A stretch of 62,632 nt of DNA, filler included, from Nemertoderma westbladi (GCA_032718475.1; 4 parts of 4 records of this genome joined end to end with filler, not necessarily neighbours in it), one strand, 5' to 3'; positions 18,375-62,632 are shown, counted from the whole stretch's first letter. Translations and numbers: made by a program. Notes: generated by a model not told the origin, from the letters alone.

Positions 18375-18474
18375 NNNNNNNNNNNNNNNNNNNNNNNNNN
18401 NNNNNNNNNNNNNNNNNNTTAATTAATTAANNNNNNNNNNNNNNNNNNNNNNNNNNNNNNNNNNNNNNNNNNNN
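18375..18474. other. Assembly gap with TTAATTAATTAA linker
   Basis: N-run, 12-nt linker, N-run. Identical construct at the two other gaps. Confidence 0.98.
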
Positions 18475-23590: not shown

Positions 23591-24018
23591 TGTCTGTTGC
23601 AGTTGTAGTTTACATGAGTTTCAAAAATTTATAAGCAGAATAATAAAGTGATTGTGAGATTATTTATTTAATACTACTTTATTAGCATTTTAATTATTTA
23701 TTGCTACCAAAGTCCGCCCAAACGAGAAACGGAATTGTTAGTTTAGATTAACCTCAGTTGATAATATTATTATCAATAATCGTAATCAGGTGAGTTTCGA
23801 AGTAATAAAATAGATCTCAGGAAAGGAAATGAAAAGTTAAGGTGTTTTTATGTTAACGTACTGTAGGTAGGCTAGCTAGTCTATTTCATATAGGCATAAA
23901 TAATAATTTAATAATAATAATAAAGTATTTATATAGCGCTAAATTTACGTTTATAGTACTCTAAGACTAAGTACCTGTACATAAAATTTAATATTAAAAG
24001 TGGTATACAGTAAGTATC

Positions 24019-27951: not shown

Positions 27952-28881
27952 CCGGTGTCACAAGGAAATCAGCCCCCCCTAGAATATGCCCCCCGGGGCA
28001 TTATTTCCTAGGATATTATGTCCCCCCGGGCAATTTTTCCTAGGAAATTTAGCCCGGGGGGGCATTTTCTCCTTAGGAAATAATGCCTCCCCTCAGGAAA
28101 ATTAGCCCCCCTCAAAAGTCTGAAAACTGGTACGATACCGGTCTGCTGGTAGCCACTTGTAATCTACCAACTGCAGAACTTGTAATAGTTGGAAGAATAG
28201 TACATAGTACGGTACCGGTCTGCCGGTAGGTAAGCAGGTAAGGCAGTAAGGGCGAAGGGATGTAGAACAGCATTGAAGTATCTAAGTCAGTAGGCTACTG
28301 TAGTAACTATTGGTATAACAGCAGTGCGAGTGTGTGGTGTTGTGTGGGCGCCGAGCAGCTCCAAGCTTTTTTAAGTCTGTAACCTGCTCCTTTCCCTGAT
28401 TTGGTAAAGTGATTGTTTATTGTTTTGGTTAGAAAATCCCGCCTCTGTAACCTGCTCCTTTCTCTCAATTGGTAATGTTATCGTTTATTGTTTTGGTTAG
28501 AAAATCCCGTCTCTGTAACCTGCTCCTTTCCCTGATTTGCTAAAGTGACTGTTTATTGTTTTGTTTAGAAAATCCCGCCTCTGTAACCTGCTCCTTTCCC
28601 TCAATTAGTTAAATGATCGTTTATTGTTTTGGTTAGAAAGGCCTGCCTCTGTAACCTGCTCCTTTCCTTCATTTGGTAAAGTTTTAGTAGTTAGTTTTAG
28701 TAGTAAGTTTTAGTAGTAATACTGTAATAAGTTTTGTTTATTGTATAATTCAGGGGGGGCATAATTTCCTAAGGGGGGGCATTTTTTCCTAGGGAAATTT
28801 GCCCGGGGGGGCATTTTTTCCTAGGAAAATATGCCCCCCCGGGCACATTTCCCGGGGGGGCATATTTTCCTGTTACACCGG
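27952..28881. mobile_element. Non-autonomous TIR element, CCGG termini, TA TSD, repetitive G/C-run subterminal arms
   Basis: ta|ccggtgtcacaaggaaat ... attttcctgttacaccgg|ta. Mirrored cctagga/(C)n(G)n arrays and an internal 68-bp tandem repeat at 28377-28680. Confidence 0.82.
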
Positions 28882-29830: not shown

Positions 29831-31625
29831 GGTTATATTGCAAAATATTGAGACATGAAAAATATCGAGAGTAAAAATAACGGGAGTAAAAACATCGAGT
29901 GTTGAAAAATAACGATAATATCGAGAGTTCAAAAAATGTCGAGAGTAAAAATATCGAGGGTAAAAATATCGAGAGTGAAAATACCGAGTGTTGAAAAATA
30001 TCTCTCGAGAGTAAAAATATCGAGAGTAAAAATATCGAGAGTAAAAATATCGAGTGTTGAAAAATATCGAGAGTAAAAATATCGAGTGTTGAAAAATATC
30101 GAGAGTAAAAATATCGAGTGTTGAAAAAAATCGAGAGTAAAAATATCGAGTGTTGAAAAATATCGAGAGTAAAAATATCGAGTGTTGAAAAATATCGAGA
30201 GTAAAAATATCGAGTGTTGAAAAATATCGAGAGTAAAAATATCGAGTGTTGAAAAATATCGAGTGTTGAAAAATATCGAGTGTTGAAAAATATCGAGAGT
30301 AAAAATATCGAGTGTTGAAAAATATAGAGTGTTGAAAAATATCGAGAGTAAAAATATCGATTAAATAAGGGTTGTATGATAATTTTTTTTACTAAAAATG
30401 TTCTACAAACAACAATATTTATCAACATTTGGTAGCTTATACAGTACGTGTTCTAATATAATATTTAACAATATTTATAATATTTAACAATATTTATAAT
30501 ATTTAACAATATTTATAATATTTATCAAAATTTATAGCTAGAACTTCTTTTATATTTATTAAAAAATAGCAAAAACTAGCTAGTATACCGTAATAAATCT
30601 GGTAAATGGGTACACAAGGTGTATTTCATAATGCCATTCACTTGCACTTGCACTGTTGTAACCCACTGCAATATTGTTCCATAATTCTAAATAAATTGCT
30701 CAAGCAAAATGCAATATTTTTACTCTCGATATTTTTCAACACTCGATATTTTTCAACACTCGATATTTTTCAACACTCGATATTTTTACTCTCGATATTT
30801 TTCAACACTCGATATTTTTACTCTCGATATTTTTACTCTCGATATTTTTCAACACTCGATATTTTTACTCTCGATATTTTTACTCTCGATATTTTTCAAC
30901 ACTCTATATTTTTCAACACTCGATATTTTTACTCTCGATATTTTTCAACACTCGATATTTTTACTCTCGATATTTTTCAACACTCGTTATTTTCGATATT
31001 TTTCATCTCGCGTTATTTTTACTCTCGATATTTTTTAATCAAGTTAATTTTCAACACTCGTTATTTTTACTCTCGATATTTTTTAATCAAGTTAATTTTC
31101 AACACTCGTTATTTTTACTCTCGATATTTTTCAACACTCTATATTTTTCAACACTCGATATTTTTACTCTCGATATTTTTCAACACTCGATATTTTTACT
31201 CTCGATATTTTTCAACACTCGTTATTTTCGATATTTTTCATCTCGCGTTATTTTTACTCTCGATATTTTATAATCAAGTTAATTTTCAACACTCGTTATT
31301 TTTACTCTCGATATTTTTTAATCAAGTTAATTTTCAACACTCGTTATTTTTACTCTCGATATTTTTACTCTCGATATTTTTCAACACTCTATATTTTTCA
31401 ACACTCGATATTTTTACTCTCGATATTTTTCAACACTCGATATTTTTACTCTCGATATTTTTCAACACTCGTTATTTTCGATATTTTTCATCTCGCGTTA
31501 TTTTTACTCTCGATATTTTTTAATCAAGTTAATTTTCAACACTCGTTATTTTTACTCTCGATATTTTTACTCTCGTTATTTTTACTCTCGATATTTTTCA
31601 AGTCTCGATATTTTTAACCATTACC
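29831..31625. mobile_element. Foldback element with internally repetitive 15/16-bp inverted arms and 8-bp TSD
   Basis: Left arm (aaaaatatcgagagt / aaaaatatcgagtgttg)n at 29831-30360, inverted right arm at about 30715-31625, GG..CC termini, TSD tactcact at 29823-29830 and 31626-31633. Confidence 0.88.
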
Positions 31626-33650: not shown

Positions 33651-34142
33651 CTATGGAAAAAGAAAAATGGAAATGATAAATATTAAGAAGTAAAATAAAG
33701 TAACTCAATTAGGACAGTCAATTCCTACATGGAGAAATATTGTTACTCTCTTTTATATATTAATTGGGCAACCGTTTAAAAACATGAATAATGATAATAT
33801 TTATTTCGATATATTTATTTGTGGGTGAAGTACAATAGCATATCATAGTGTGAAGAGAAAGGAGTTTTTTTGGTTTCTGAAGGAAGATAGTGAGTGATAG
33901 AAAATAAAGTCACGAAATAAATACTTTGTAACAATTATTTGGTTTTAACTCTTAAAATTGAAGATTTCGATACGATTGCTGATTTTATACGGCGGGGTAG
34001 CTCAGTTGGTAGAGCGCTGTGTCTCCAATCTATTGGTTGTAGGTTCGAACCCAACCTGGGTCCACTCTGCCTTTCATCCCCTTGAGACGATAAATTTAGG
34101 ACCAGTTGAATTTGAGGGAGTAAAACTTGAAATACGAGTAAG

Positions 34143-35349
34143 GCCCACCCGTACCTTCGGGTAGCAGATAGGAGTAGCGCCTACCCCTACCCTCGGGTAT
34201 CAGATATGAGTAGCGCCCACCCCTACCTTCGGGTTGCGGATAGGAGTAGCTCCCACCCCTACCTTGGGGTAGCAGATATGAGTAGCGCCCACCCCTACCT
34301 TCTGGTAGCAGATAGGAGTAGCGCCCACCCCTACCTTCGTGTAGCAGATATGAGTAGCGCCCACCCCTACCTTGGGGTAGCAGACATGAGTAGCGCCCAC
34401 CCCTACCTTCTGGTAGCAGATAGGAGTAGCGCCCACCCCTACCTTCGGGTAGCAGATAGGAGTAGCGCCCACCCCTACCTTAGCGTAGCAGATAGGAGTA
34501 GCGCCCACCCCTACCTTCGGGTAGCAGATAGGTGTAGCGCCCATCCCTACCTTCGGGTAACAGATATGAGTAGCGCCCGTCCATACCTACGGGTAGCAGA
34601 TAGGAGTAGCGCCCACCCCTACCTTCAGGTAGCAGATAGGAGTAGCGCCCACCCCTACCTTCGGGTAGCAGATAGGAGTAGCGCCCACCCCTACCTTAGC
34701 GTAGCAGATAGGAGTAGCGCCCACCCCTACCTTAGCGTAGCAGATAGGAGTAGCGCCCACCCCTACCTTCAGGTAGCAGATAGGAGTAGCGCCCACCCCT
34801 ACCTTTGGGTAGCAGATAGGAGTAGCGCCCACCCCTACCTTAGCGTAGCAGATAGGAGTAGCGCCCACCCCTACCTTAGCGTAGCAGATAGGAGTAGCGC
34901 CCACCCCTACCTTAGCATAGCAGATAGGAGTAGCGCCCACCCCTACCTTAGCGTAGCAGATAGGAGTAGCGCCCACCCCTACCTTAGCGTAGCAGATAGG
35001 AGTAGCGCCCACCCCTACCTTCAGGTAGCAGATAGGAGTAACACCCACCCCTACCTTAGCGTAGCAGATAGGAGTAGCGCCCACCCCTACCTTCGGGTAG
35101 CAGATAGGAGTAGCGCCCACCCCTACCTTAGCGTAGCAGATAGGAGTAGCGCCCACCCATACCTTCGGGTAGCAGATAGGAGTAGCGCCCACCCCTATCT
35201 TCTGGTAGCAGATAGGAGTAGCGGCCACCCCTACCTTCTGGTAGCAGATATGAGTAGCGCCCGTCCATACCTTCGGGTTGTAGATAGGAGTAGCGCCCAC
35301 CCCTACCTTCGGATAGCAGATATGAGTAGCACCTACCCCTACCTTCAGG
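34143..35349 (+). repeat. 36-bp minisatellite, ~33 copies (gtagcagataggagtagcgcccacccctaccttcgg)
   Basis: Visible tandem array. It produces the spurious 12-aa-repeat ORFs on both strands. Confidence 0.97.
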
Positions 35350-37039: not shown

Positions 37040-37235
37040 CCACCCCTACCTTCGGGTAGCAGATAGGAGTAGCGCCCACCCCTACCTTCAGGTAGCAGAT
37101 AGGAGTAACACCCACCCCTACCTTAGCGTAGCAGATAGGAGTAGCGCCCACCCCTACATTCGGGTAGCAGATATGAGTAGCGTCCACCCCTACCTTTGGG
37201 TAGCAGATAGGAGTAGCGCCCACCCCTACCTTCGC
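37040..37235 (+). repeat. Continuation of the 36-bp minisatellite, ~5 copies
   Basis: Same unit and orientation as 34143-35349. Confidence 0.95.
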
Positions 37236-41681: not shown

Positions 41682-41781
41682 NNNNNNNNNNNNNNNNNNN
41701 NNNNNNNNNNNNNNNNNNNNNNNNNTTAATTAATTAANNNNNNNNNNNNNNNNNNNNNNNNNNNNNNNNNNNNNNNNNNNN
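41682..41781. other. Assembly gap with linker
   Basis: N-run with TTAATTAATTAA. Confidence 0.98.
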
Positions 41782-43778: not shown

Positions 43779-44999
43779 GGGTCCTACTAAATACTACAAA
43801 AAGCACAAAACAAGCACAAAAAAGCACAAAAAAGTCAAGAAAAGCACAAAAAAGCACAAAAAAGGTAAAAAAAGCACAAAAAAGTAAAAAAAAAGCACAA
43901 AAAAGCAAACTGATAGCTGTTTATTGAGCTTGTAATAGAACAGATGATAGAAGAAGCAATATCATGTAGTGCAGTAGTGTCTAGGCTACCGGAAGGATAA
44001 TCACATGTCCAGTATGCTTTCATGTCATAGCTGCCAGTGAGTGAGTACCAGCACGAGCACTTACAGGTACAGCCCTACCACGAGCACCCTAGTGCAATAT
44101 CAGGCTAATGTCAGTATGTAAAGATGGTTCAATTCAAATATCAGGATAGAACTTATAATACTGTAATATACTTTTTTATTGTCACATTATGTCAACTTAT
44201 CAGCGTTCTGATTAATTACTTGTAACGATGTAGCGATGTGGGAGATGTAGCGACGCAGCATAGGCGCTTGTAAACTGGATATGTCAGTGTTGACCGAAAT
44301 CGCGATTATTCTGTTATTGGAATGCCTTTGTTCACCGATAAATCGACATACTGTACAATTATCACATCACGGTCTGCCCGAACCTCTCGAGTGGGCGATC
44401 GATAACGTCTGAGGACAAGTATGATGATATTAGTCATAGTCATACTTGCAATAATCTCGCTTAGGTCGGAACTGCCTTGTCTTGTCGGAACTTATCTTAT
44501 ATGTCAATATTCTATTTTATTTTACCTTAATTGACGACCCCCATGAGTGCCTTAGATCCTTGGTGTTCTTTCCCACGATCGTAATATACTGTAGTTTTAT
44601 TAAACTATTAATCTATACTGTAGGCCTATGTGTTTGATTATGTTTTTTTTATAGTGAATTTAATTACAAATACACTTTGCAGTATTGTGGCCTTTACATA
44701 CTGTAGGTCAGAACGTTGCAAATTAATCAATCATAGGCGTATGGGTTACCTTCGTATGTGGGGGGTGTCAGGGTGTCTGTAACAATATCTCTCATATTTT
44801 CGCCTCCAGCCCCCCCCCCCCCCCCCCCATGTCTCTTGAAGTGAGAATGTTTTTTTTGTGCTTTTTTTTTACTTTTTTGTGCTTTTTTTTACTTTTTTTG
44901 TGCTTTTTTGTGCTTTTTTTGTGCTTTTTTGTGCTTTTCTTGACTTTTTTGTGCTTTTTTGTGCTTGTTTTGTGCTTTTTGTAGTATTTAGTAGGACCC
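43779..44999. mobile_element. Foldback/TIR element with 10-bp (aaaaagcaca)n inverted arms
   Basis: gggtcctactaaatactacaaaaagcac... at 43779-43910 is mirrored by ...gtgctttttgtagtatttagtaggaccc at about 44850-44999. No TSD evident. Confidence 0.8.
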
Positions 45000-45985
45000 A
45001 TTGTGGGGCGACCCATGCATTGCTGTATTGAGCGGGGGCTGACTGGCTGATCTACTGTCTGACTGTAGCTGTCTAGCAGTCAGAGAGCTGGAGAGTGGGC
45101 TATTCTGCTATTAGGCTGCAATACAATCTTATGTGTTTTAATGCAGCTTTTTGTACTGTTGTATTCAAAAAACACAAAAAACTGTCCCAAGCCCGCAAAA
45201 TTGCAGAGGGAGAACTCAATAAAGTTGCAGATAGAGGCGTACATACATCAGTACATAGCCTACAGGCCTACATACTCTGATACTGACATAACGTAGCTTA
45301 CAGTCTATTCTTCAGTAGGCTATACTGGACTGGTATATGGGCTACTTTCACTTTCTGACTTTAGGACTATGACGTATGACCTAAATTTTGAGTCTCAAGG
45401 AGTTTTATCTACCCACTGCATAGTATGTACCGGCTGACCGGTATTGCATTATGTTGTTTTATAAGAAGAGTAGCCTATTTCTACTTGTATGCCAGTATGC
45501 CAATCAAAATTTACATGAATCAAATTTCTGTCAATCATTTCATACTTGGCTTGGCACTTGGCCACAGAACCAAGGCCGCTACCCGCTAGTGATTGACACT
45601 GTACTGCTGTAGTGCTGTAGTGTGTACTGTGTAGCAGCGCATATTTCGGTGCCGTTGCATTTGCTTACATTTAATTATATTTGTATACAAGTTTAGCTGT
45701 TTAGTGTAGTGTAGTGTATACCGGTACTACACCAGTACGAGTACACTGGCAGACTGGCTGACTGGTATACACGTTTTGTATGCTTTTCTCACTCGTTTGT
45801 ACTCTTTTGTACTATTTTTGCACTCTTTTGTATTATTTTTGCACTTTATTGTACTCTTTTGTAGGCCTACTATATTGTACTATTTTGTATTTTTTTGTAC
45901 TTTTTTGTACAGATTCGTCGGACCGGTATTTGTGGATATCCGATGATATACTGATTACCGGTATGCAATATCTGAATATGCTGAT

Positions 45986-47213
45986 ATGAGTCTTCTTTGT
46001 GTTATTATTTTAACATCCTGTTTGGGTTCCTGGCTTCCTGTGCACGGCTCGCGTCTTAGCCATCCAGCCATCCTGCTGCCGTTTCGTTCCGATGGACTGA
46101 GAAGTATATTTACTATCGTTGGGGAGGACGGATGTTTCACATGGTGGTCCAACAACCCGGAGCGGGTCTCCGTCGAACCTGTCGCCGCTACAACTAAAGG
46201 TGGCGTCCAGTGCAGTCTAAATGCGGTGGTCACCGCTGTGGACACCAGTAGGAAACGCGTCAGCTCTGTCGTTTACGCTAAAGAATACAGCACCGGCGAA
46301 ATATTGAGATGCGATGTTATTATAGATAATATTTACGGGATCGATATAATCACGACGATGCGTCATTTATTCCTCGGAAATCCACCCGAAAAGATAGAAA
46401 TCCGAGCGTTCGACCAGCAAAACAACACATTTTCAACGCTAGGAGGCGTGGCTGTAGACTGGTTTATTGGGGTCTCACCTCGAATAGACGGTGGTTCTTC
46501 TACCACTGATCCACACTCCATCCTGCGGTTAATTCCCTTTGCGAAATCGAGTTATACTGTTTCCTCAGAGATAACGCATTTGGAGGAGCGTGGATCTCGT
46601 GGGAGTGTTGTCCTAGTCGAGGGATTAAAGTCGGGCTCAGTCACCGTCTCCGCGACATTCGATAAAGGCGATAACCTCAGGGTTAAATCCTCAATAATCC
46701 TTTGGGTCGTAGACAATGTAATGCTGATTCCATCCCAGTTGGTTTATCTATTGGTTAATGATAGAATCCAATACGCGTTAGCGAAGTTGCGTTCTGGTAA
46801 ACTCATCCACATCCCTATGCCGTCGACTCAGTACTCGGTTGGTTTATCTAACGACTCGGTAGTTTCCGTTAGTCCTTCTCTCTTTGTTTCTGCTGAGTTT
46901 CAGGGAACCACTCAACTCATAACCATAGACTCAACCGTGGCCCCTTCCCCTCCCTCTTCCATCCCCCATCTCCCTTCCGCCTCCATCAACGTCGTTCTTC
47001 CCAACTTCCTCCGAATTTCGTTGGCTTCCGGGGTTGCCTCAATGACCTCTGGTAACGACTACGTTGTCTTGGTAAGAGTCTACGACGATCACCGCAATCC
47101 TGTTTATCTATCTGAGTTCATCCAGATAGCTACTAAGTTTACTCTGGAGGGGTTGACTGTTGCCATGTCAACTAAGAATGGAACCTATCATCGCGTTAAA
47201 CCAAATCTTAAGG
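45986..47213 (+). CDS. NUP210: Nuclear pore membrane glycoprotein 210, coding exon 1
   Basis: Signal peptide, then PAILLPF, GCFTWWS, GEILRCDVIIDNI..IDIITTMRHLFLG.PPE...RAFD..NNTFSTL.G, which is the gp210 N-terminus. Donor AAGG|gtaaga at 47214, phase 1. Confidence 0.92.
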
Positions 47214-47337
47214 GTAAGATAGAGTTATAAAGTTTAAAGGTGGGCCTAACTAGCTGATTTAGAAAACAGGTATAATGTCCTATATGTGTAACAAAGGTAC
47301 ACGGACTCATAATTATACAATATTGCAATTATATATA

Positions 47338-47468
47338 TATGAAATGCATTAGGCCCATAAGTAGTTTTCAGATTTTGTCTGAGTCCGTATGTCAAAAGTA
47401 TAGCTTACTTTTGACATACGGACTCAGACAAAATCTAAAAACTACTTATGGGCCTAATGCATTTCATA
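47338..47468. repeat. 131-bp near-perfect palindrome (63-bp arms, 5-nt loop) in the Nup210 intron
   Basis: tatgaaatgcattaggccc...gtcaaaagta-tagct-tacttttgac...gggcctaatgcatttcata, with one mismatch seen. Confidence 0.93.
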
Positions 47469-47748
47469 CAAAATCTTCAAAGCGACAAAAGGTTTAACAA
47501 GATGTAAATTAAGGCGGTTGTGAATTGTATACGAATACAGTACTATAGTAGTGCATGTAACAGTTGGTGAGATCATTTTAGTTCGATTATCAGGTGAACA
47601 TTTTTGTGAAATTCTGTTACACATACCCTTCTCAGATAGGGGGGGGGGGGGGGGGGACTGGACGCAATAAAAATTCACCCATCAAGACTGAATTCACTTT
47701 AAAAAACACGGTGGCAGTAAATTTTCCCTAGTTACATAGGTTAGTTAA

Positions 47749-47890
47749 ACTCACCTTAGTGTAGTGGTTGGGGTTGCATTGAATTTACATCTCTCTGGAT
47801 GTCGAGGGTTCGATTCCCACATGAGGGCCAGGGCAGTTTTCGTTTCGGCACGAATGCTTGATGGGACTAACCAGGGCGCATCTCTGACTT
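47749..47890 (+). mobile_element. tRNA-derived SINE (family of 6443-6580)
   Basis: tagtgtagtggtt A box, gggttcgattccc B box, shared body. Confidence 0.7.
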
Positions 47891-48081
47891 GCATCCTTAG
47901 GTGGTAGCTCTAACTGCCGAATAAAAGTTTACTTGTTTATTTTTCTTACAACTACAATTGTTGACAAGTATCTTAAAATAATTGGTAAGTATATGTTAAA
48001 AAAATAAATGAATCGTTCAAAAACCGCCGGAATTCCGGCCGGAACGGAATTCCGGGACATCCCTAGTTTAGATATACTAAA

Positions 48082-51000
48082 TAATAGTGGAAACTTTATT
48101 ATTTGTTTAGGTAAACTAATAGTGGAAACTTTATTGTTTGTTTAGGTAAACTAATAGTGGAAACTTTATTGTTTGTTTAGGTAAACTAATAGTGGAAGCT
48201 TTATTGTTTGTTTAGGTAAACTAATAGTGGAAACTTTATTGTTTGTTTAGGTCAAGGATGTTATTACGTTACGTTACGGTATCTTTTCAGGAATACGGTT
48301 GCTCAATATTTTTCCGTAACGTAAACCGTAACGTAATAGCTTTTTCAATACCGTAACGTAATTTTACTGTATATTTTTTCCGTAAACCGTAACGTAATAG
48401 CGTAATATTTGTTTTAGCTACCAAGCAATCATTTTGGACAAAAAGTAAATCTTTCGACAAAAAACTTTCACTTTCACTTGCATGTTCTAGCTAATTCAAT
48501 ATAAAGCTAAATGCTTTTAGGTTTTGTTTGTCTTCTACACGGTCTTCTTATAGCCAGCTTCCTGGCTTCTCCGGTTATTTATGATAAAGTCCCCCTATCA
48601 ATATTGCCAAAAGCTCTTAAAAAGCTTAAAAAGCTCTTTGCCCCAAAAGTTCTACGCGCACTTCTTCAGTATAGGCCACTTAACAAATACAACAACACAA
48701 AAACAACGTAAACTACACTACATAATCTTCCAGAGTTTCAGCAACACTATTAAAATTCGACCAATCTGAAGGCGACCAAATACAGAGTTCTAGAACACAA
48801 TAAATCTCGTCCTGAGTTTCAACTCACAAAGTTTCGGAGGTAATTTCAAGATTAATAAATTCTTAGTTTATTATAACGAAAATAATAATAACGTTTTATA
48901 CCGGAGTTAAGGGAGTAAAGTTTAGTTCCCTAGCGATTAGTAGCAGTATTAACAGGACAGTAGCTCCCCGGACAGTAGCCCCCAGGGATTTTATATCACA
49001 GAAATTCCAGAATATAATATTTTTTTAATGTTTTTTAGTATTGGGTCTGGGTGAATATTCTAGAACAGTATATATATGTTTTTGTATGATAGCTACCCGT
49101 TCCCGTTCTACCAAGTCAGTCAGTACCGGTACTGTGGGCCTTGGTTCTACACAGGAATACAGAATAGTGATCAATAAAGCGGGAAATTTGAAGTTATTTT
49201 TATGTTAAGTTAATTTGCAATTTCAAAACATTGAAACTACTGTATAATTTTCCGATTTTTAGACAAAAATAGGATGAAACTTTAAATATCTGGTCCTATG
49301 GCAATCTGAACCGGTTATTACGTTACGGTATTTTCGGTAATACGCAATTATTTTTTTCGGAATACAGTAACGTAATTTAGAAATTATTCCGTAATGTAAT
49401 ATCGTAACGTAAAAAGTTCAGTTTTTCAACCGTAACGTAACGTAATACCGTATCGTAACGTAGCATAAAACATCCTTGGTTTAGGTAAACTAATAGTGGA
49501 AGCTTTATTGATTGTTTAGGTAAACTAATAGTGGAAGCTTTATTGTTTGTTTAGGTGAACTAATAGTGGAAACTTTATTGTTTGTTTAGGTAAACTAATA
49601 GTGGAAACTTTATTGTTTGTTTGGGTAAACTAATAGTGTAAACTTTATTGTTTGTTTGGGTAAACTAATAGTGGAAGCTTTATTGTTTGTTTAGGTAAAC
49701 TAATAGTGGAAGCTTTATTGTTTGTTTAGGTAAACTAATAGTGGAAGCTTTATTGTTTGTTTAGGTAAACTAATAGTGGAAGCTTTATTGTTTGTTTAGG
49801 TAAACTAATAGTGGAAGCTTTATTGTTTGTTTAGGTAAACTAATAGTGGAAGCTTTATTGTTTGTTTAGGTAAACTAATAGTGGAAGCTTTATTGTTTGT
49901 TTAGGTAAACTAATAGTGGAAGCTTTATTGTTTGTTTAGGTAAACTAATAGTGGAAGCTTTATTGTTTGTTTAGGTAAACTAATAGTGGAAGCTTTATTG
50001 TTTGTTTAGGTAAACTAATAGTGGAAACTTTATTGTTTGTTTAGGTAAACTAATAGTGGAAGCTTTATTGTTTGTTTAGGTAAACTAATAGTGGAAGCTT
50101 TATTGTTTGTTTAGGTAAACTAATAGTGGAAACTTTATTGTTTGTTTAGGTAAACTAATAGTGGAAACTTTATTGTTTGTTTAGGTAAACTAATAGTGGA
50201 AACTTTATTATTTGTTTAGGTAAACTAATAGTGGAAACTTTATTATTTGTTTAGGTAAACTAATAGTGGAAGCTTTATTGTTTGTTTAGGTAAACTAATA
50301 GTGGAAACTTTATTGTTTGTTTAGGTAAACTAATAGTAGAAACTTTATTGTTTGTTTAGGTAAACTAATAGTGGAAACTTTATTGTTTGTTTAGGTAAAC
50401 TAATAGTGCAAACTTTATTATTTGTTTAGGTAAACTAATAGTGGAAACTTTATTGTTTGTTTAGGTAAACTAATAGTGGAAACTTTATTATTTGTTTAGG
50501 TAAACTAATAGTGGAAACTTTATTGTTTGTTTGGGTAAACTAATAGTGGAAACTTTATTATTTGTTTAGGTAAACTAATAGTGGAAGCTTTATTGTTTGT
50601 TTAGGTAAACTAATAGTGGAAACTTTATTGTTTGTTTAGGTAAACTAATAGTGGAAACTTTATTGTTTGTTTAGGTAAACTAATAGTGGAAACTTTATTA
50701 TTTGTTTAGGTAAACTAATAGTGGAAACTTTATTATTTGTTTAGGTAAACTAATAGTGGAAACTTTATTATTTGTTTAGGTAAACTAATAGTGGAAACTG
50801 TATTTTTGTTTAGGTAAACTAATAGTGGAAGCTTTATTATTTGTTTAGGTAAACTAATAGTGGAAACTGTATTTTTGTTTAGGTAAACTAATAGTGGAAG
50901 CTTTATTGTTTGTTTAGGTAAACTAATAGTGGAAACTTTATTATTTGTTTAGGTAAACTAATAGTGGAAACTTTATTATTTGTTTAGGTAAACTAATAGT

Positions 51001-54000
51001 GGAAACTGTATTTTTGTTTAGGTAAACTAATAGTGGAAGCTTTATTGTTTGTTTAGGTAAACTAATAGTGGAAACTTTATTATTTGTTTAGGTAAACTAA
51101 TAGTGGAAGCTTTATTGTTTGTTTAGGTAAACTAATAGTGGAAACTTTATTGTTTGTTTAGGTAAACTAATAGTGGAAACTTTATTGTTTGTTTAGGTAA
51201 ACTAATAGTGGAAGCTTTATTGTTTGTTTAGGTAAACTAATAGTGGAAACTTTATTGTTTGTTTAGGTAAACTAATAGTGGAAACTTTATTGTTTGTTTA
51301 GGTAAACTAATAGTGGAAACTTTATTGTTTGTTTAGGTAAACTAATAGTGGAAACTTTATTGTTTGTTTAGGTAAACTAATAGTGGAAACTTTATTGTTT
51401 GTTTAGGTAAACTAATAGTGGAAGCTTTATTGTTTGTTTAGGTAAACTAATAGTGGAAGCTTTATTGTTTGTTTAGGTAAACTAATAGTGGAAACTTTAT
51501 TGTTTGTTTAGGTAAACTAATAGTGGAAACTTTATTGTTTGTTTAGGTAAACTAATAGTGGAAACTTTATTATTTGTTTAGGTAAACTAATAGTGGAAAC
51601 TTTATTGTTTGTTTAGGTAAACTAATAGTGGAAACTTTATTATTTGTTTAGGTAAACTAATAGTGGAAACTTTATTGTCTGTTTAGGTAAACTAATAGTA
51701 GAAACTTTATTGTTTGTTTAGGTAAACTAATAGTGGAAACTTTATTGTTTGTTTAGGTAAACTAATAGTGCAAACTTTATTATTTGTTTAGGTAAACTAA
51801 TAGTGGAAACTTTATTGTTTGTTTAGGTAAACTAATAGTGGAAACTTTATTATTTGTTTAGGTAAACTAATAGTGGAAACTTTATTGTTTGTTTGGGTAA
51901 ACTAATAGTGGAAACTTTATTATTTGTTTAGGTAAACTAATAGTGGAAGCTTTATTGTTTGTTTAGGTAAACTAATAGTGGAAACTTTATTGTTTGTTTA
52001 GGTAAACTAATAGTGGAAACTTTATTGTTTGTTTAGGTAAACTAATAGTGGAAACTTTATTATTTGTTTAGGTAAACTAATAGTGGAAACTTTATTATTT
52101 GTTTAGGTAAACTAATAGTGGAAACTTTATTATTTGTTTAGGTAAACTAATAGTGGAAACTGTATTTTTGTTTAGGTAAACTAATAGTGGAAGCTTTATT
52201 ATTTGTTTAGGTAAACTAATAGTGGAAACTGTATTTTTGTTTAGGTAAACTAATAGTGGAAGCTTTATTGTTTGTTTAGGTAAACTAATAGTGGAAACTT
52301 TATTATTTGTTTAGGTAAACTAATAGTGGAAACTTTATTATTTGTTTAGGTAAACTAATAGTGGAAACTGTATTTTTGTTTAGGTAAACTAATAGTGGAA
52401 GCTTTATTGTTTGTTTAGGTAAACTAATAGTGGAAACTTTATTATTTGTTTAGGTAAACTAATAGTGGAAACTTTATTGTTTGTTTAGGTAAACTAATAG
52501 TGGAAACTTTATTGTTTGTTTAGGTAAACTAATAGTGGAAACTTTATTGTTTGTTTAGGTAAACTAATAGTGGAAACTTTATTGTTTGTTTAGGTAAACT
52601 AATAGTGGAAACTTTATTGTTTGTTTAGGTAAACTAATAGTGGAAACTTTATTATTTGTTTAGGTAAACTAATAGTGGAAACTTTATTGTTTGTTTAGGT
52701 AAACTAATAGTGGAAACTTTATTGTTTGTTTAGGTAAACTAATAGTGGAAACTTTATTGTTTGTTTAGGTAAACTAATAGTGGAAACTTTATTGTTTGTT
52801 TAGGTAAACTAATAGTGGAAACTTTATTGTTTGTTTAGGTAAACTAATAGTAGAAACTTTATTGTTTGTTTAGGTAAACTAATAGTGGAAACTTTATTGT
52901 TTGTTTAGGTAAACTAATAGTGCAAACTTTATTATTTGTTTAGGTAAACTAATAGTGGAAACTTTATTGTTTGTTTAGGTAAACTAATAGTGGAAACTTT
53001 ATTATTTGTTTAGGTAAACTAATAGTGGAAACTTTATTGTCTGTTTAGGTAAACTAATAGTGGAAGCTTTATTGTTTGTTTAGGTAAACTAATAGTGGAA
53101 ACTTTGTTGTTTGTTTTGGTGAACTAATAATAGTGTAAACTTTATTGTTTGTTTAGGTAAACTAATTGTGGAAACTTTATTGTTTGTTTAGGTAAACTAA
53201 TAGTGGAAACTTTATTGTTTGTTTAGGTAAACTAATAGTGGAAACTTTATTGTTTGTTTAGGTAAACTAATAGTGGAAACTTTATTGTTTGTTTAGGTAA
53301 ACTAATAGTGGAAACTTTATTATTTGTTTAGGTAAACTAATAGTGTAAACTTTATTGTTTGTTTAGGTAAACTAATAGTGGAAACTTTATTGTTTGTTTA
53401 GGTAAACTAATAGTGGAAACTTTATTATTTGTTTAGGTAAACTAATAGTGTAAACTTTATTATTTGTTTAGGTAAACTAATAGTGGAAACTTTATTGTTT
53501 GTTTAGGTAAACTAATAGTGGAAACTTTATTGTTTGTTTAGTTAAACTAATAGTGGAAACTTTATTATTTGTTTAGGTAAACTAATAGTGGAAACTTTAT
53601 TGTTTGTTTAGGTAAACTAATAGTGGAAACTTTATTATTTGTTTAGGTAAACTAATAGTGGAAACTTTATTGTTTGTTTAGGTAAACTAATAGTGGAAAC
53701 TTTATTGTTTGTTTAGTTAAACTAATAGTGGAAACTTTATTATTTGTTTAGGTAAACTAATAGTGTAAACTTTATTGTTTGTTTAGGTAAACTAATAGTG
53801 GAAGCTTTATTGTTTGTTTAGGTAAACTAATAGTGGAAACTTTATTGTTTGTTTAGGTAAACTAATAGTGGAAACTTTATTGTTTGTTTATGTGAACTAA
53901 TAGTGGAAGCTTTATTGTTTGTTTATGTGAACTAATAGTGGAAGCTTTATTGTTTGTTTATGTGAACTAATAGTGTAAACTTTATTGTTTGTTTAGGTAA

Positions 54001-54575
54001 ACTAATAGTGGAAACTTTATTGTTTGTTTAGGTAAACTAATAGTGGAAACTTTATTGTTTGTTTATGTGAACTAATAGTGGAAGCTTTATTGTTTGTTTA
54101 TGTGAACTAATAGTGTAAACTTTATTGTTTGTTTAGGTAAACTAATAGTGGAAACTTTATTGTTTGTTTATGTGAACTAATAGTGTAAACTTTATTGTTT
54201 GTTTAGGTAAACTAATAGTGTAAACTTTATTGTTTGTTTATGTGAACTAATAGTGGAAGCTTTATTGTTTGTTTAGGTAAACTAATAGTGGAAACTTTAT
54301 TGTTTGTTTATGTGAACTAATAGTGTAAACTTTATTGTTTGTTTAGGTAAACTAATAGTGGAAGCTTTATTGTTTGTTTAGGTAAACTAATAGTGGAAGC
54401 TTTATTGTTTGTTTAGGTAAACTAAATGTGGAAACTTTATTGTTTGTTTAGGTAAACTAATAGTGGAAACTTTATTGTTTGTTTATGTGAACTAATAGTG
54501 TAAACTTTATTGTTTGTTTAGGTAAACTAATAGTGGAAGCTTTATTGTTTGTTTAGGTAAACTAATAGTGGAAGC
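48082..54575 (+). repeat. 35-bp tandem satellite (~150 units) built from the Nup210 intron/exon-2 junction
   Basis: Unit GTAAACTAATAGTGGAA(A/G)CTTTATTGTTTGTTTAG. About 5 units lie before and about 145 after the MITE insertion. The last partial unit is the start of exon 2. Confidence 0.97.
48253..49478. mobile_element. hAT-type non-autonomous element inserted in the 35-bp satellite
   Basis: TIR caaggatgtt / aacatccttg, (cgtaa)n subterminal repeats, perfect 8-bp TSD gtttaggt at 48245-48252 and 49479-49486. Confidence 0.9.
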
Positions 54576-57500
54576 CCAATTTGCATCCATCGTTCTTGAG
54601 GATAACTCCATCTATTTCCTACGGCCGCCGGTCGTAGCAACGGCTTCCTTCGATGTATTCGACCCGCTCACATTGCGACCCAATCTATTAGCGTTCCCAT
54701 GGTTACCGAAACGCGAGACACCCTACAGCCGCACCCTAGCGGCGACGGGCGGCACGGGAGACTACCACTGGTACGTGGAGGACAGCAAGGTGTGCAGAGT
54801 GGATGACACGGGAACGGTAACCACGGCTGGCGCTAGGGGGCGCACTAGGGTGGTTGTAAAGGACTCCGAAAACCGCGTCGCTGAGTCTACGGTTGCGGTG
54901 GACGAGCCTAGCGAGTTAGTACTGAACGCTAGTCGAGTTGAGGCGGAGGTGGGTACCGAGTTACTGTTACCCGTTGGGTTGCTGGTTGCCACAGACGACG
55001 GACATAAACTCCCGGTCTCCGACTGCCGTGGTCTCAGTTTCTCTCTCGATCTCACCGCCTCTCCTCCCGTCTTCCGATCCTCCGAATCCGTTCTCTCGCC
55101 CTCAGATTCGGGTTGCTCCGGGCTACCGATGACGTCACTAGCCCCCGGTTTCACCACGGCGACCGTCTCGCTGAAACTCCCCGGATCCAACCGGTTGCTA
55201 AGCGACCGAGTTACTCTCGCGGGGTTCCACCCACTGCGGTTCCTGGAGCTCCCGCTGGATGGCGACGGGACGGTCAGCGTGCCGCCGGGTACCGCGTTGC
55301 CGCTTCGACTGTCCGGGGGCCCGTTGCCATGGCTACACGACCCGTCTACTTTCCGGGTGACTTCGTTCCGAACGCGGGAGTCCGGCGATCCGGTCCGTTC
55401 CGACTCGACGGGAACCGATCCCGACGGAATCCACATGGTCTCGTTGGGTTGCTCGGAGACGGAGTCCTTCCGGTTCGCCGTGGAGGTCGGCAACCGGGTC
55501 TCCCCGTTGAACCGGGACCCCGCGCGGTCGCGCGCCGCCGTCGACGTGGTCTGCGTCCATCCAACGCGCGTGGTCCTGCGACTGGAGGCCGCGGACAACG
55601 CGGTTAAACCCTCGTGCCCCGAGGAATCCCGCGACTCGATCCACGTGGTCCGCAACTCGCGGGTTCGGCTCTCGTTCCGGGGGTTCGACGACCGCGGTCG
55701 ACCGATGCTCAACCTGTCCTCCCTGACGACCAGGTGGACCGTAGACGGGGCGGCTGAGCTGGTAGGGGAGGAGTTGACCGTCGGTGACCGGGTTGGCCAA
55801 CCCGTTACCGTCACAGCCTGTCTCACTAAATATAAAACGAAGATCAACTCGAAAGGAGTAAACTTTCCGATCTGCGATAAACTGAAACTCCTCGTTGTGA
55901 ACCCGATCTCGCTCGATCCCCGGAGTATCTCACTCTTCAATCATCCCTCCAGTAAGTTCACAACCAAAGTTTCCGGTGGTTCAGGTTACTTTAACGTTAT
56001 TGCCAGCAACTCATCCGTTCTAGAATACTGGCATAGCAACAAGGACGGTAAACTGACTGTTGTTCCGATCTCGGACGGGTCTATCGTTCTGTCTGTGACC
56101 GACTTGTGCGTCGCCGGTAAGTCGGGATTCGTCGAACTCTCGGTGGATGTCTGGGGAATCGGTTCGATCCGAATCGATTCCGCCACTACGGTTATGGTTG
56201 GCCGCGAGTTGGATGTGCGAGTCCGGGTTAGTAACACCCAGGGACGCCTAATGGACGCCTCTCTCTACCATCTCATGGATCTTAAAACTGTGGTGAACAG
56301 TTACCTCGAGGTTGTCGATGTCCTCGAGGAGGTTGACGGCGTGGTTCGTGTGCGGGCGGCGGCTGTAGGTACCGGGTGGTTGAGTGTGGAGACACAGGGT
56401 ATATCGAGCTCCTCCCTGGAGGTCGTCGTGTTCCCTCCGCTCTCCGTTCAGCCCCCGCGGGTCTCTCTCCTCCCGGGCGGTCGTCTCCGACTCCGGGCCC
56501 ACGGCGGGCCTCCCACCAATTCCCGGATTATATTCTCCTCGGAGGAACCCCGAGTATCTTCCGTTTCCAGCGACGGACTCCTCCGCGCCTCCGATATCGG
56601 CGTCACCGCGATTAGGTGCTCCTCCGTTTCGCTCTCCGACGAATCCGTCGTCTATACCAGCGCCGCGGTCGCCGTCCACGTTAAACTCCTCGACGGGGTT
56701 TCCATTAAACTCCCGTCTGCCGTCGTCCTCGTCGATCAGCTCCTCCCGGTTTACGTAAAGGGACTCGGGGAATTTGATTCCCCCTTTATATTCTCCGGTT
56801 TGCTCTCGGCGATCTCGTTTAAGTGGCACGTTTCTAACCCGAGCACCGCTCGCATCCAATCGGTGGTCGAGCCATCCGTCTCCAAGCAACCGGAGGACTT
56901 CGCTGTGCGGTTGCTAGGGGTTACCGCCGGGGAGGTCCGACTAGTTGTGGAGGTGACGCCCCCTGGCGGTGGGACGGTGTTATCGGCTTCCGCCCTCGTC
57001 CAGGTGGTACCTCGGTTGGAGTTTCCCGCTCCTTGCGGTTCCGTTTGCAGGTTGACCATGTCGCCCGGCTCGGAATTCCCGCTGCGAGGCTCGGCTAACT
57101 ACCCCGAGCGACTCGTGTACGAGACACTGCCGCAAGATGGCGGTGACCTGGTGACGATCAGTAAGGACGGAGTGGTCACCGCTAAGGATGGCGTCGGTTC
57201 GCAACTGGTTCGCGTCATCGGGTCCCAGTCCCGCGGCTTTAACGATTCTATGGTTCTCGATATCCGAGTCGATAAGGTTTATATGGTCGCGGCGTTCGTC
57301 GACTTCTCGCGACTCGTTACCATGGATACCGGGGGTGTCGCGTCTGGTTCGTCGCCGTTGGGGAGCGCCGTGGCGGTGGGCGTTCGCTACCAGGACGCCC
57401 TGGGGCGGGGGTTCGATGCCCACAGAGGAGGCGTCGAGGTGGCGGTGGACGACACGGACGTGGTCCAGGTTGTCGGCGCCGGACCCCGCGCCGGAGTCCG

Positions 57501-58623
57501 CACGGAGTGGCGCGCCGGGTCCGTCGGGGTCGCTATACTCAAAGTGTGGGAACCCGTCGATGGGTCCACCCAACCCGACGGGTCTCTCCAACCCAACGGA
57601 TCCACCGAGTTGGCCGACTACATCCCGATTCGCGTCGCTGATTGGCTGTCTCCCTCCGACTCGAGCTACTCGGTTATGGACCTGGTCTGCTTCTCCTGCC
57701 CGGTTGGGGACGGACAGTGGAGCGCTACCGACTCCGTCTCCATCGATGTGGACTCCCGTACCGGGATGGCTCTGCTACGGGAACCGGCTTCGGTTCACGT
57801 CTCTCTTAAACTTCCGACCGCCGGCGCCACTCCGCTCGAACTCCACAAACCCGTAGATATCCAGCCGGTCGTGTCGGTTTCCTTCCAAACCAACTCATTA
57901 AACAACTTCGTCAGCGATAAGGAACGCGAGTATTTGTTCCCCGTTATTTTCCATTCCGCCACTAAAGACGACGTCCACATATTCGGCGACTGTTCCGGGG
58001 CCAAACTCAACGCGTTGTTGTTCCGACAGCTTCCCTTTACGTGCCGGGCGTGGATCGAGAACATCGCCGCTTCCCGAAGCGTCTCCGTGGTCAGCGCCGC
58101 GCAGTTCGACACCGCCGCATTGCAGTTTGTATGCTCAGTTAGTCTTGAGACTCGGACCTCTTCTCTTTCAGCCAGTCTGGACTCCCAGATCAACTTACAG
58201 GCGACTCTCGTTGGGAACGCACGCAACCAACCCACCGTCGCTTCCTCCGTTATCTCCCTCCCGTTTCATCCCAAGTTCGTTATGTCATCCTCTTCCGTTA
58301 TTCTCTCGTCCGAGGAGCCGTTGGGACACATAACTCTCTGTGGGACTCGTTTGGTTGCGGACTCCCTTCGGATTGGCGAGAGTGTCCCCGGTTGGGTCTC
58401 CCTCGGCGCGTTCCAGTACGACGAACCCACGCACACTCTCACCATCCCGGTCTACGCCCGGGAGATCGTGCATCACGAACGGGCCCCGTTGGTGCTCACG
58501 CTGACCTGCGGGGTTACCGGCCACACAGAGACCATCACTGTCGAGTACAAACAGTCCGGTGCGATGGTCTCTCCGTTGGTCTACCAACACAGACGGGGCG
58601 GTTTAATGCACGAGATCCTATCA
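54557..58623 (+). CDS. NUP210: Nup210 coding exon 2 (over 4 kb, truncated by gap before the TM helix)
   Basis: Acceptor ttgtttag| at 54556. The phase-1 join gives ...LKG KLIVEAQF in the 1367-aa frame. gp210 motifs: LAFPWLP, ATGGTGDYHW, GGPLPW, LFNHP, GGSGYF, VFPPL, GGPP, YQDALGRGFDA, repeated Ig-like domains. Confidence 0.92.
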
Positions 58624-58723
58624 NNNNNNNNNNNNNNNNNNNNNNNNNNNNNNNNNNNNNNNNNNNNTTAATTAATTAANNNNNNNNNNNNNNNNNNNNN
58701 NNNNNNNNNNNNNNNNNNNNNNN
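58624..58723. other. Assembly gap with linker
   Basis: N-run with TTAATTAATTAA. Confidence 0.98.
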
Positions 58724-59820: not shown

Positions 59821-61821
59821 TTAATGAATGTTGAAACATCCAACAAGGAAATTTACAATTGCCTGTTCCATATGGGCCCTGACGGATTGATGCCAGGTGG
59901 AATGTTGATGAGAACTATAAATTAATTCACTAAACTGAATATTTTTCTCAGTCAATTCATCAATGAGCCCAGCAGTGTGATCGAAAAATACAAATTTATC
60001 CTCAGTATTATGAATAATTAAGAGCCGTTGGGATGTTGTGTTGAATTTAGCTAAGTTGGATTGTTCAATAGATCGCAGTTGGAAGGGCCACGTTTCTCCG
60101 CCTTTTGGTGTGCCAAAATATCTCTCAACCATGAAAGAAGCATACAGTTTCCAGTTTGTAATTGGTGCCACAATAACGTTGCAAGAGAATGGAGATTGGT
60201 TGGTAGTCGCAGCCAATAGCCCAATGTATCCACCATACAGTTCTCCCCATAGTCCCACTCTTGATCCGTTTACTCTCCCACTGCTCACAAGATCATTTAC
60301 AACAGCAATTACATCAACGATTTCCAGATCACCCAGTTGTTTGTAAATGGAGTTTCGGAATGTCGCACCATATCCAGTTGAGCCATGAACATCAATCTCC
60401 ACCACCATAAAGTCCAATGATCCTACCAAATAGCTAACCAAATCAATGTCAAACTTATCCTGAACCAGGTGCGATCCTGGTCGGTCAGGTAAATGAACTA
60501 CCAATGGATACATATGTTTGTTGTCGTAATTCATAGGCAAATAAAGTTTAGCATGAATTTCTTCATTGTACTTTGTATTTACTACCAAGTGTTCGGTAAT
60601 AGGTAGACGAAACAATTCGATGCTCTCATTGTAAAGTTTAATATTATCTTCAAGCATTACAGTAGAACCAGTCTCAATGTTTAATGCTAAATCGAAAGGA
60701 TATGCAGGGCCTTGGCAAGTGAGAACAACCCAGTTACTAATCCGAGATGACAAAACAGTGAAATAAGTGCAATTATTTTCTCTTATGTTACAGGTAACGC
60801 ATTTAGCGATATGGTTATTGTCCATACTGTACAGATGCTGTTGATGTGGTGAATTCTGATTGGATAAATAAAATACTTCGTCATCATCTAGTTTAACTAG
60901 TTGACTTACTTCCCACTTCCCAGATGTAATAAACTCTACCGAGTCACCAATTACATTTGTAACCAGGTTTATTCTGCCGATGTGCTTATATGATCCATCC
61001 ACGTAGTTTTGTCGGGATTCAAGTACAACATATATTAGATCGCCATTATTACTCGCTAAAGGAGGACTGACAACATCTATCCAAGGTTTATTAAACGTCG
61101 AAAAAATAACACGAGTGTTCAATTCACTAACATCTGTTACAGTTAAAACGCTGTAATGTTGTTCGCGATTCGCCCACTGAACAAAGAGCTGATTGTTGTT
61201 CAACCAATTTACACTTAGAATATATAAATTATGCCATTCATCATTCGGAATACGTAGAGAATCCCCCAAATCTTTCAATTCATAAGAATTTCCCGTAAGA
61301 ACTTGAACACAATACAGCTTTGTATCTGGGTTAATTTTGCCAGGAAAAGGGACTCGTATTCCTTTTACATCTTCGGAAGAATAATTTGGTATAATTTTCT
61401 CGTCAACTTTACTGTCATCAAATTTTAAGTAAGCTATATAATTCCCATTCGGTGACCACCACATTCCTTTGGTTTGCTTCAAAACTTCAACTTCATACAG
61501 CCAGTCAGTAACTCCATTGTATATAGTGCCACTAATACCATCATTGGTCAGCATTTTAACGCTATCATCAAATGCGGTAGGCTCATTTTTTATGTATATG
61601 TTATTGTTTCTTATAAAAGCAATGGAATGTCCAACTGGTGACCACTCAACATATTGAATCCTGGAGTTATTGAGCAATAGGTTGACGAATTTGCTTTGTT
61701 CAACATCATAAACTACATATTGAGCAGTGTACGAATAAAGTACATTGTACTTGAGATCAGTTGTAATTAATACAAACTTGCCATCTGAAGAAACACTCAG
61801 GTTATCTATGAGATATTGGTC
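59821..61821 (-). CDS. DPP4-family (S9B) protein, inactive DPP6/DPP10-like, 2001-nt terminal exon; earlier exons lie outside the window
   Basis: Acceptor ttattacag| at 61822. SSDGKF, WSPVG, NGVTDWLYEVE, WWSPNG, ITSGKWEV, DVHGSTGYG, GELYGGY in place of GWSYGG, HNTEDKFV, ...GCF terminus. Confidence 0.92.
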   Translation of the reverse strand, partial: DQYLIDNLSVSSDGKFVLITTDLKYNVLYSYTAQYVVYDVEQSKFVNLLLNNSRIQYVEWSPVGHSIAFIRNNNIYIKNEPTAFDDSVKMLTNDGISGTIYNGVTDWLYEVEVLKQTKGMWWSPNGNYIAYLKFDDSKVDEKIIPNYSSEDVKGIRVPFPGKINPDTKLYCVQVLTGNSYELKDLGDSLRIPNDEWHNLYILSVNWLNNNQLFVQWANREQHYSVLTVTDVSELNTRVIFSTFNKPWIDVVSPPLASNNGDLIYVVLESRQNYVDGSYKHIGRINLVTNVIGDSVEFITSGKWEVSQLVKLDDDEVFYLSNQNSPHQQHLYSMDNNHIAKCVTCNIRENNCTYFTVLSSRISNWVVLTCQGPAYPFDLALNIETGSTVMLEDNIKLYNESIELFRLPITEHLVVNTKYNEEIHAKLYLPMNYDNKHMYPLVVHLPDRPGSHLVQDKFDIDLVSYLVGSLDFMVVEIDVHGSTGYGATFRNSIYKQLGDLEIVDVIAVVNDLVSSGRVNGSRVGLWGELYGGYIGLLAATTNQSPFSCNVIVAPITNWKLYASFMVERYFGTPKGGETWPFQLRSIEQSNLAKFNTTSQRLLIIHNTEDKFVFFDHTAGLIDELTEKNIQFSELIYSSHQHSTWHQSVRAHMEQAIVNFLVGCFNIH

Positions 61822-62632
61822 CTGTAATAATAAATATACAAATTTATTTACAATGGAAAAAGGTATGAAGTTTGAATTGTATTTGCAATATCTGGCCGGA
61901 CACCGACCGGAAGCAATAAATATTCATCCCTCTCCAGGGGAATTCGACGCAAATAAAAGCTGATTACTCTCAAAATAAAACTGTAAACTGTGTTCTATTG
62001 TGTTTAGTTTATTGTTTAGGTTAAAATAACATGCCACTGTAACCTGCTCCTTTCCCTAGATTGAGAATTTAACATTGAGGCGGGATATTAATTCACCAAG
62101 GCACGTTTTGCGTTCAGTCCCCCCCCCCCCCCTGTCTCCCTTCATCCATCAGGGATATATCCTTTATTAATTACATAATTAAATTTATACTTAAATAATT
62201 CAAAATATATTTAAATAATTAAAAATATTCGAAACGGCTGTCTACGTCTTATAGATAGCAACTTACAAGCAAACTTTTCCCTTGTTTACTAAGGTTTAGT
62301 ATCCGGCCGGACATTTGTCCAGATATCTGGTGCACCCCTAACCCCTATTTTAGAACAAATATTTATTGTTCTTGGAAAATGTATATTTTTAAATTTCACA
62401 GAAAAATTTCAAAAAAGTGTATAAATATTTCTTCTTGAGCATTATTTGTAAATAAATAAACCTACATGACATATAATACTTTATGTCACAAAAGTAATAA
62501 AAACTAACTAATGCAAAACAATGGCGCCTGAAACCCTAAAGTGAATATGTGTGCAAAAATCAAACAACTTATAAAATCCACGAAAACAACACTCAGAAAA
62601 TTCATATTTTTCGTGATTTTTCAAACACTCAT

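Follow-up and report, generated by a model that had tools for sequence, protein, structure and literature searches.

The window analysed here, a stretch of 62,632 nucleotides from Nemertoderma westbladi (GCA_032718475.1), consists of contigs with N spacers between them and carries a Nup210 gene on its plus strand, in two exons separated by a long intron filled with repeats. The gene was recognized by its NUP210 Ig families in Pfam, four of which lie in exon 1 and six, together with Big_2, in exon 2; the identity proposed by the first-pass annotation of this DNA is thus borne out in both exons. Exon 1 (45908..47213) is supported by Pfam and by bases 1-1306 of a transcript contig from sequencing run X2, the start of which we took as the exon's left limit. 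Its ATG is at 45986, and it encodes a start that resembles a signal peptide as well as Ig domains 1-4. Exon 2 (54557..58623, 60% G+C) begins by coding for G-K-L-I-V-E, as had been stated, and is open to the contig end; there an N spacer follows, and the gene is cut at 58623 with its C-terminus missing. Over its whole length the protein is about 26-28% identical to Nup210 from vertebrates and a limpet, and the best matches of exon 1 are vertebrate sequences with 33-35% identity. A DPP4-like sequence is also present in the window, with best matches of 29-31% identity, again in vertebrates.

The intron (47214..54556, plus strand) is 7,343 nt long and is the only one in the 5.3 kb of Nup210 coding sequence within the window. 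It begins with the 5' splice site GTAAGA (47214..47219, phase 1) and ends with the acceptor AG at 54555..54556. The donor at 47214 was the only one tested that gave a gap-free open join, and the loose end of the X2 contig coincides with the end of exon 1; the acceptor follows from the join in the same contig, made without an extra base, and from a gap-free protein alignment. The exon 1 end at 47213 and the acceptor at 54556, both proposed previously, are therefore correct. The join interrupts the Ig_4th domain of Pfam, is gap-free relative to five aligned homologues (five of the six found), and yields a frame that is stop-free over 1,764 codons, from 45989 to the contig end. Joins to two other in-frame AGs, at 54569 and 54575, leave gaps of four and six residues, respectively, relative to the homologues, and both were dismissed as acceptors. 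The 5' part of the intron that precedes the array (47220..48075, no strand assigned) is mostly made of high-copy repeat fragments, with depths in DNA runs of up to thousands of times that of the exon, and contains, at 47338-47468, an inverted repeat whose 63-nt arms form a hairpin.

A 35-nt array split by a DNA element

Repeat copies account for 5,255 of the 7,343 intron nucleotides, i.e., 72%. Each 35-nt unit consists of the first 18 nt of exon 2 and the last 17 nt of the intron, the same composition that the sequence had first suggested. TRF reports a period of 35 at 48078-48252 (5.0 copies) and at 49479-54573 (145.7 copies, 96% matches). The left block (48076..48252, plus strand) has five units, the first of them degenerate, and the main array (49479..54574, plus strand) has 145 units of 35 nt, followed by a final 18 nt that are the real start of exon 2. 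There are thus 151 junctions between intron-derived and exon-derived sequence, namely 150 decoys and the true one at 54556/54557. The AG is kept in 136 of the 150 decoys, AG|GT in 134 and TAG|GTAAAC in 132, and 134 of all 151 junctions combine an AG with a CTAAT at -40..-16. That most of them read AG|GT is due to exon 2 starting with GT. The last unit (54522..54556, plus strand) carries its CTAAT at 54527-54531, in the exon-derived half, with the adenosine at -27, in agreement with the branch-point spacing given before. Downstream of every junction, the first 19 nt are the same. The earlier claims of about 150 tandem acceptor copies, mostly with AG|GT, and of a true acceptor hidden among well over 100 local equivalents are accordingly upheld. 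No further copy of the unit was found in the window, which has three matches of 11-12 nt elsewhere, and among metagenome contigs 286 pattern matches produced no confirmed relative.

The repeat had been described as a single array from 48082 to 54575. The tandem copies are there, but the array is not continuous: five junctions lie on one side, and 146 on the other, of a 1,226-bp insert that had been overlooked. This insert (48253..49478, no strand assigned) sits at a unit junction and is a non-autonomous hAT-like DNA element. It has perfect 10-bp terminal inverted repeats and is flanked by an 8-bp target duplication, GTTTAGGT, at 48245-48252 and 49479-49486, whose positions 4-5 are TA, like those of Buster targets. 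The source consulted characterizes hAT elements of this kind by a target duplication of 8 bp, inverted repeats of 5-27 bp at the termini and a length under 4 kb (PMC3517528); the corresponding values for the insert are 8 bp, 10 bp and 1,226 bp. The element has no open reading frame of at least 120 aa, and no second copy of it exists within the window.

The units have a mean identity of 97.6% to their consensus, and the array ends are divergent. Inside the main array there is a 22-unit duplication (50325 and 51687); a run of 22 unit types recurs 39 units apart, compared with a maximum of 8 in 200 shuffles. Minisatellite turnover within the array is therefore evident. Near the 3' end, a zone at 53889..54492 (plus strand) includes nine variant junctions reading TAT|GTGAAC, all inside an 18-unit span, in which the acceptor AG is lost and the donor is weaker. 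Junctions with a dead AG amount to 9 of the last 20, versus 5 of the other 129, in a tally that, like some others here, uses 149 decoys, the junction at the insert's left edge being left out. This crowding may mean that decoys carry a cost, with purifying selection in the vicinity of the true site. A statistical case that selection removed AGs there was rejected, however: the nine copies represent one variant, so the Fisher test (p = 3e-6) is invalid, and counts per variant type give p = 0.05 and 0.10.

The array and its transcript in public sequencing runs

Eight public runs are listed, none of them recorded as RNA, and four, X1 to X4, contain the exon. For these, assembled contigs were compared with both flanks of the intron. 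X1, X3 and X4 are DNA-like and represent two samples, X1 and X3 being from the same one. In all three, contigs cross the boundary between exon 1 and the intron; the DNA-like runs also include both unit types, with either A or G at position 18. The depth of the unit relative to the exon is about 50-fold in X1, 160-260-fold in X3 and 90-160-fold in X4, where these are summed contig depths rather than copy numbers. Since the ratios for X1 and X3 disagree within one sample, they are no measure of array length. X1 and X4 are blank at the bin for the AG-dead variant while X3 is not; as X1 and X3 are one sample, these blanks are uninformative. Thus, a large array exists in two samples, and its length is not given by the depths.

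X2 yielded a contig of 1,639 nt, at a depth of 62.7, that was found at both intron flanks. Its bases 1-1306 correspond to 45908-47213, and bases 1307-1639 (333 nt) to 54557-54889, with zero extra bases in between. Although X2 carries the label 'DNA?', we read it as a transcriptome, based on this spliced contig and on its low repeat depth: a high-copy repeat bin reaches 159 times the depth of exon 1 in X2, versus 4,600-12,600 times in X1, X3 and X4. On the same ratios, the reading of X2 as DNA from an intron-less allele was rejected. The spliced contig and the RNA-like repeat depth show that Nup210 is expressed and that splicing goes to the last AG in the assembled form, a single contig from a single run. 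At the repeat bins of 54470-54539, X2 gave no contig; because assembled contigs drop rare forms, this blank is no evidence against splicing intermediates. The first-pass annotation had called for RNA joins of exon 1 to distinguish one-step from stepwise removal of the array. The direct join of 47213 to 54557 was indeed recovered, but the two routes lead to the same mRNA and are not separated by it.

These data also bear on whether the locus could be an assembly artefact or a dead gene copy, both of which had been raised as doubts. The window is pieced together from contigs separated by N spacers, assemblies often get long repeats wrong, and the array length given here is that of the assembly rather than of long reads. 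Nevertheless, the unit occurs at high depth in three of three DNA-like runs from two samples, with both unit types present, and the array is therefore no artefact of assembly; the gene copy, for its part, has a frame open over 1,764 codons and a spliced contig. We consider either explanation exceedingly improbable.

Choice of the last acceptor

Our favoured interpretation, which we hold to be probable, is that the spliceosome passes over the 150 spare borders and goes to the last AG in a single step. There is likewise a good probability that the array is a 'mirage', that is, a 35-bp minisatellite copied from the border of the intron and exon 2 in an expressed Nup210 gene. The position of the branch point may explain how such a repeat could arise. 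Of the original intron, 17 nt remain next to the true AG, and the adenosines between -19 and -33 all belong to the last unit's exon-derived half; branch points are typically 19-37 nt from the acceptor, according to the source consulted (PMC10078293). The true acceptor thus likely takes its branch point from copied exon sequence, namely the CTAAT adenosine at 54530. A small duplication across the border would have brought the exon's CTAAT to a position 27 nt before the real AG, and an exon-derived branch point would explain why that duplication was tolerated. With this branch point in each unit, every unit would be a complete, self-contained acceptor, and for this reason the gene could keep splicing while slippage and unequal exchange multiplied the unit. 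The hAT-like element would have arrived in the array later.

As to what singles out the last AG, it likely wins because it alone adjoins real exon sequence, whereas each decoy precedes more U-rich repeat. The G+C content is 26% over the final 100 nt of the array, 48% over the following 100 nt and 61% over the 100 nt after those; the T content falls from 46% to 16% across the true site. The cue would therefore be either exon-side signals or this compositional step. In its alternative scenario, the first-pass annotation had the last AG chosen through enhancers in exon 2. The choice of the last AG fits better than a ladder does; the enhancer part found no counterpart, as none was identified in exon 2. 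A search of the literature on compositional steps as acceptor cues gave nothing useful. With a length of 4 kb or more, exon 2 is too long for ordinary cross-exon definition to explain the choice of acceptor.

The outcome of a wrong choice can be read from the frame. A join of exon 1 to any of the 135 AG-intact decoys tested runs into a stop 17-44 nt downstream (135/135), which in 116 cases is the unit's own terminal TAG. A decoy-joined mRNA would thus encode a protein cut after about 420 residues. Messenger RNA with an early stop is typically degraded by nonsense-mediated decay, and rare decoy joins, ending within 44 nt, would likely be removed in the same way.

The first-pass annotation had proposed instead that the array splices itself out as a recursive ladder. 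Here, exon 1 would join a decoy, the join would regenerate a donor, and the array would be removed in hops of at least two units; stated more fully, the GTAAAC at the start of exon 2 would regenerate donors all along the array and create a ratchet over up to 134 zero-length exons. The former looks unlikely to us, and the latter has only a slim chance. To be sure, AG|GT is present at 134 of the 150 decoys, the decoys are transcribed up to 6.4 kb ahead of the true site, and weak regenerated sites are sometimes functional in Drosophila, according to the sources cited (PMC8184009; PMC8605326). The regenerated donor forms five Watson-Crick pairs plus a wobble with U1, and it outpairs most GT sites nearby: pairing with U1 is at least as good at just 1 of the 87 sites of exon 1, 15 of the 309 of exon 2 and 7 of the 53 of the unique intron sequence. 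It lacks a G at +5, however, and its duplex with U1 is predicted at -6.2 kcal/mol, whereas the real donor reaches -8.9 and the donor of the next junction -6.7, values that derive from a U1 motif of general knowledge and not from a species-specific donor model. In Drosophila, weakened ratchet donors are described as leading to inclusion of cryptic exons, and the exon junction complex as suppressing regenerated donors (PMC8605326, PMC8184009). Because the regenerated donor is no stronger than the next one, the donor-competition model, as presented in PMC8605326, would have the stop-bearing piece kept. The last rungs are also problematic: from 54522 there are 35 nt left to the true site, less than the minimal intron of about 60 nt quoted in PMC3265369, and at 54487, the rung 70 nt away, the AG is gone. 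Published mirages splice normally, and recursion is not invoked in the parts of those reports consulted (PMC3087553, PMC3902484); nor did titles and abstract openings in the openly accessible literature reveal a report of recursive removal of such an array. Overall, the ladder gained no positive support, and the weak donor, the 35-nt dead end and the early stops make it unlikely. It keeps its slight probability because the final mRNA is identical by either route.

Two further explanations were considered. One is that a sizeable share of transcripts joins decoys and is destroyed, such that array length and the fraction of AG-dead units tune Nup210. The decoys would allow it, given the AG in 136 of 150, the combination with CTAAT in 134 of 151 junctions and the early stop after every join tested; AG-dead variants are concentrated near the true site, and human 6-16 and CBS intron 13, both donor-side cases, show partial use of the nearest pseudo-sites, as reported in PMC1557585. 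Yet the nine clustered AG-dead junctions share one variant and probably go back to one event with local spread, the decoy closest to the true site (54522) is intact, the acceptor AG is affected in 3 of 15 substitution types (p = 0.05), and other variants cluster as well; we find this explanation rather doubtful. The other is that structure hides the decoys, with the halves of the unit pairing and the array folding into a rod that is looped out. A single unit does form an imperfect hairpin of 14 pairs (-6.6 kcal/mol, z = -2.3 relative to linear shuffles). Against controls that were shuffled and then repeated, however, the array is ordinary (z = -1.0 and -0.8 with RNA parameters, -0.2 and +0.2 with DNA), which rules out the unit hairpin as a selected feature; moreover, the true acceptor is predicted to be paired as much, and to be as accessible, as the decoys. 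We regard this as very improbable. One-step use of the last AG in a mirage remains our preferred explanation.

The locus is a natural test system in which one acceptor is picked among 151 near-identical ones. The variant units serve as positional barcodes, and AG|GT allows a comparison of one-step and recursive removal on the same substrate. The array also hints at why some borders amplify, in that the first bases of the exon likely supply a branch point once duplicated. Should recursion prove true after all, the satellite would permit its own expansion by being spliced out of an essential gene, and it would be the first mirage shown to act as a chain of ratchet points; satellite growth would be linked to the birth of ratchet points, to the surprise of splicing specialists.

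Comparison with known splice-site repeats

Minisatellites termed 'mirages' have been described in amphioxus, in the genes for globin BflGb6 and Adh3 (PMC3087553) and for troponin C and PGBD5 (PMC3902484). In the description consulted, splicing is undisturbed even though many copies keep AG/GT signals (PMC3087553). As in those arrays, the repeat in Nup210 joins the 3' end of an intron to the 5' part of the next exon in tandem, with splice signals in many but not all copies and a normal mRNA (PMC3087553), here one contig with the authentic site. Its 35-nt unit, which spans the border, falls inside the 10-72 bp range quoted for Adh3, and concerted turnover and divergent array ends are shared too. 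The accounts consulted also point to differences: Nup210 has 150 spare copies rather than the 3-6 of BflGb6, its exon starts with GT, a DNA element splits its array, and its intron is the only one seen in the gene.

Human genes offer smaller counterparts on either side of the intron. CBS 844ins68, a 68-bp duplication of the border of intron 7 and exon 8, also duplicates a 3' splice site, and there too the distal copy is used and the mRNA is normal (PMC1802585, PMC2630376). CBS has two copies, however, versus 151 here, and its choice is credited in these sources to G runs between the sites, whereas the Nup210 unit has at most GG, rarely GGG. Minisatellites that repeat a splice site also include the 37-bp VNTR of F7 intron 7, 6-16, CBS intron 13, LMNB2 and PDGF, as compiled in PMC1557585. 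In arrays of the F7 type the end unit spans the exon-intron border and the authentic site dominates, as in Nup210. These are donor-side repeats, for which 5'-to-3' scanning is described as taking the first site (PMC1557585); Nup210 takes the last of 151 acceptors, and such scanning is therefore no explanation.

Drosophila ratchet points and RS-exons share with the decoys an AG|GT juxtaposition that a branch-like motif and a U-rich tract precede (PMC8605326, PMC8184009). As described there, ratchet points are single and conserved, with introns of about 50 kb (the mean given in PMC8184009) and strong regenerated donors that prevail over the downstream donor of the cryptic exon; splicing intermediates are a further hallmark. 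Nup210 has 134 repeat copies, a weak regenerated donor that does not exceed the donor downstream, and an intron of 7,343 nt. Likewise, the Rogers model of intron gain, as outlined in PMC3265369 and PMC2891723, starts from a tandem duplication across AG|GT, the extra copy being spliced out. Unlike in that model, where both splice sites come from the duplicated segment, the Nup210 donor lies outside the repeat, and the locus gives no sign of a newly gained intron. The comparison lends no support to such an origin, as the 5' end of the intron and the start of exon 2 are alike only at GTAA, a similarity equalled in 809 of 2,000 shuffles. Taken together, these comparisons place the Nup210 array among the published mirages, probably as a very large but harmless case. 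Its distinctive features are the size of the array, the AG|GT in most of its units, and a branch point that is likely derived from the exon.

Contig structure and the 3′ end of Nup210

Identical 100-nt spacers, each consisting of 44 N, 12 bases with stops and a further 44 N, are found at 18375-18474, 41682-41781 and 58624-58723. These spacers show that the window is made of joined contigs, so genes that adjoin in the window need not adjoin in the genome. Nup210 is truncated where one such contig ends, at 58623. In the sequencing run read as a transcriptome (X2), a second contig, of 4,076 nt, begins at window position 54891, and would extend about 340 nt beyond the contig end. This transcript contig may therefore hold the missing Nup210 C-terminus.

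Intron content, composition and upstream repeats

The animal looks intron-poor, because a DPP4-like frame of about 700 aa (59821-61923, minus strand) and a mannose-6-phosphate-receptor/ATG27-like frame of 262 aa (22832-23620, minus strand) are both uninterrupted, and only one intron is seen across 5.3 kb of Nup210. The G+C content of this gene differs sharply between exon 2 (54557-58623), at 60%, and exon 1 (45986-47213), at 48%. Directly upstream of the gene lie 10-nt repeat tracts, at 43798-43907, 44852-44980 and 45774-45910, the first two in opposite orientations.

Other tandem arrays

A 68-nt repeat of 4.5 copies (28376-28682) is flanked by inverted GC-rich arms, at about 27985-28092 and about 28752-28845. 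Its unit contains an acceptor-like U-rich tract, with TTAG at its end, that resembles the end of the Nup210 intron; inspection by eye found no exon flanking the repeat. One 36-nt unit forms two arrays, 34132-35346 (33.8 copies) and 37040-37234 (5.4 copies), separated by about 1.7 kb. Ahead of the former is a tRNA-like stretch, at about 33990-34065, although ARAGORN called no tRNA. Two AT-rich 32-nt arrays, 29838-30360 and 30714-31615, lie face to face on opposite strands and resemble the arms of a foldback element.
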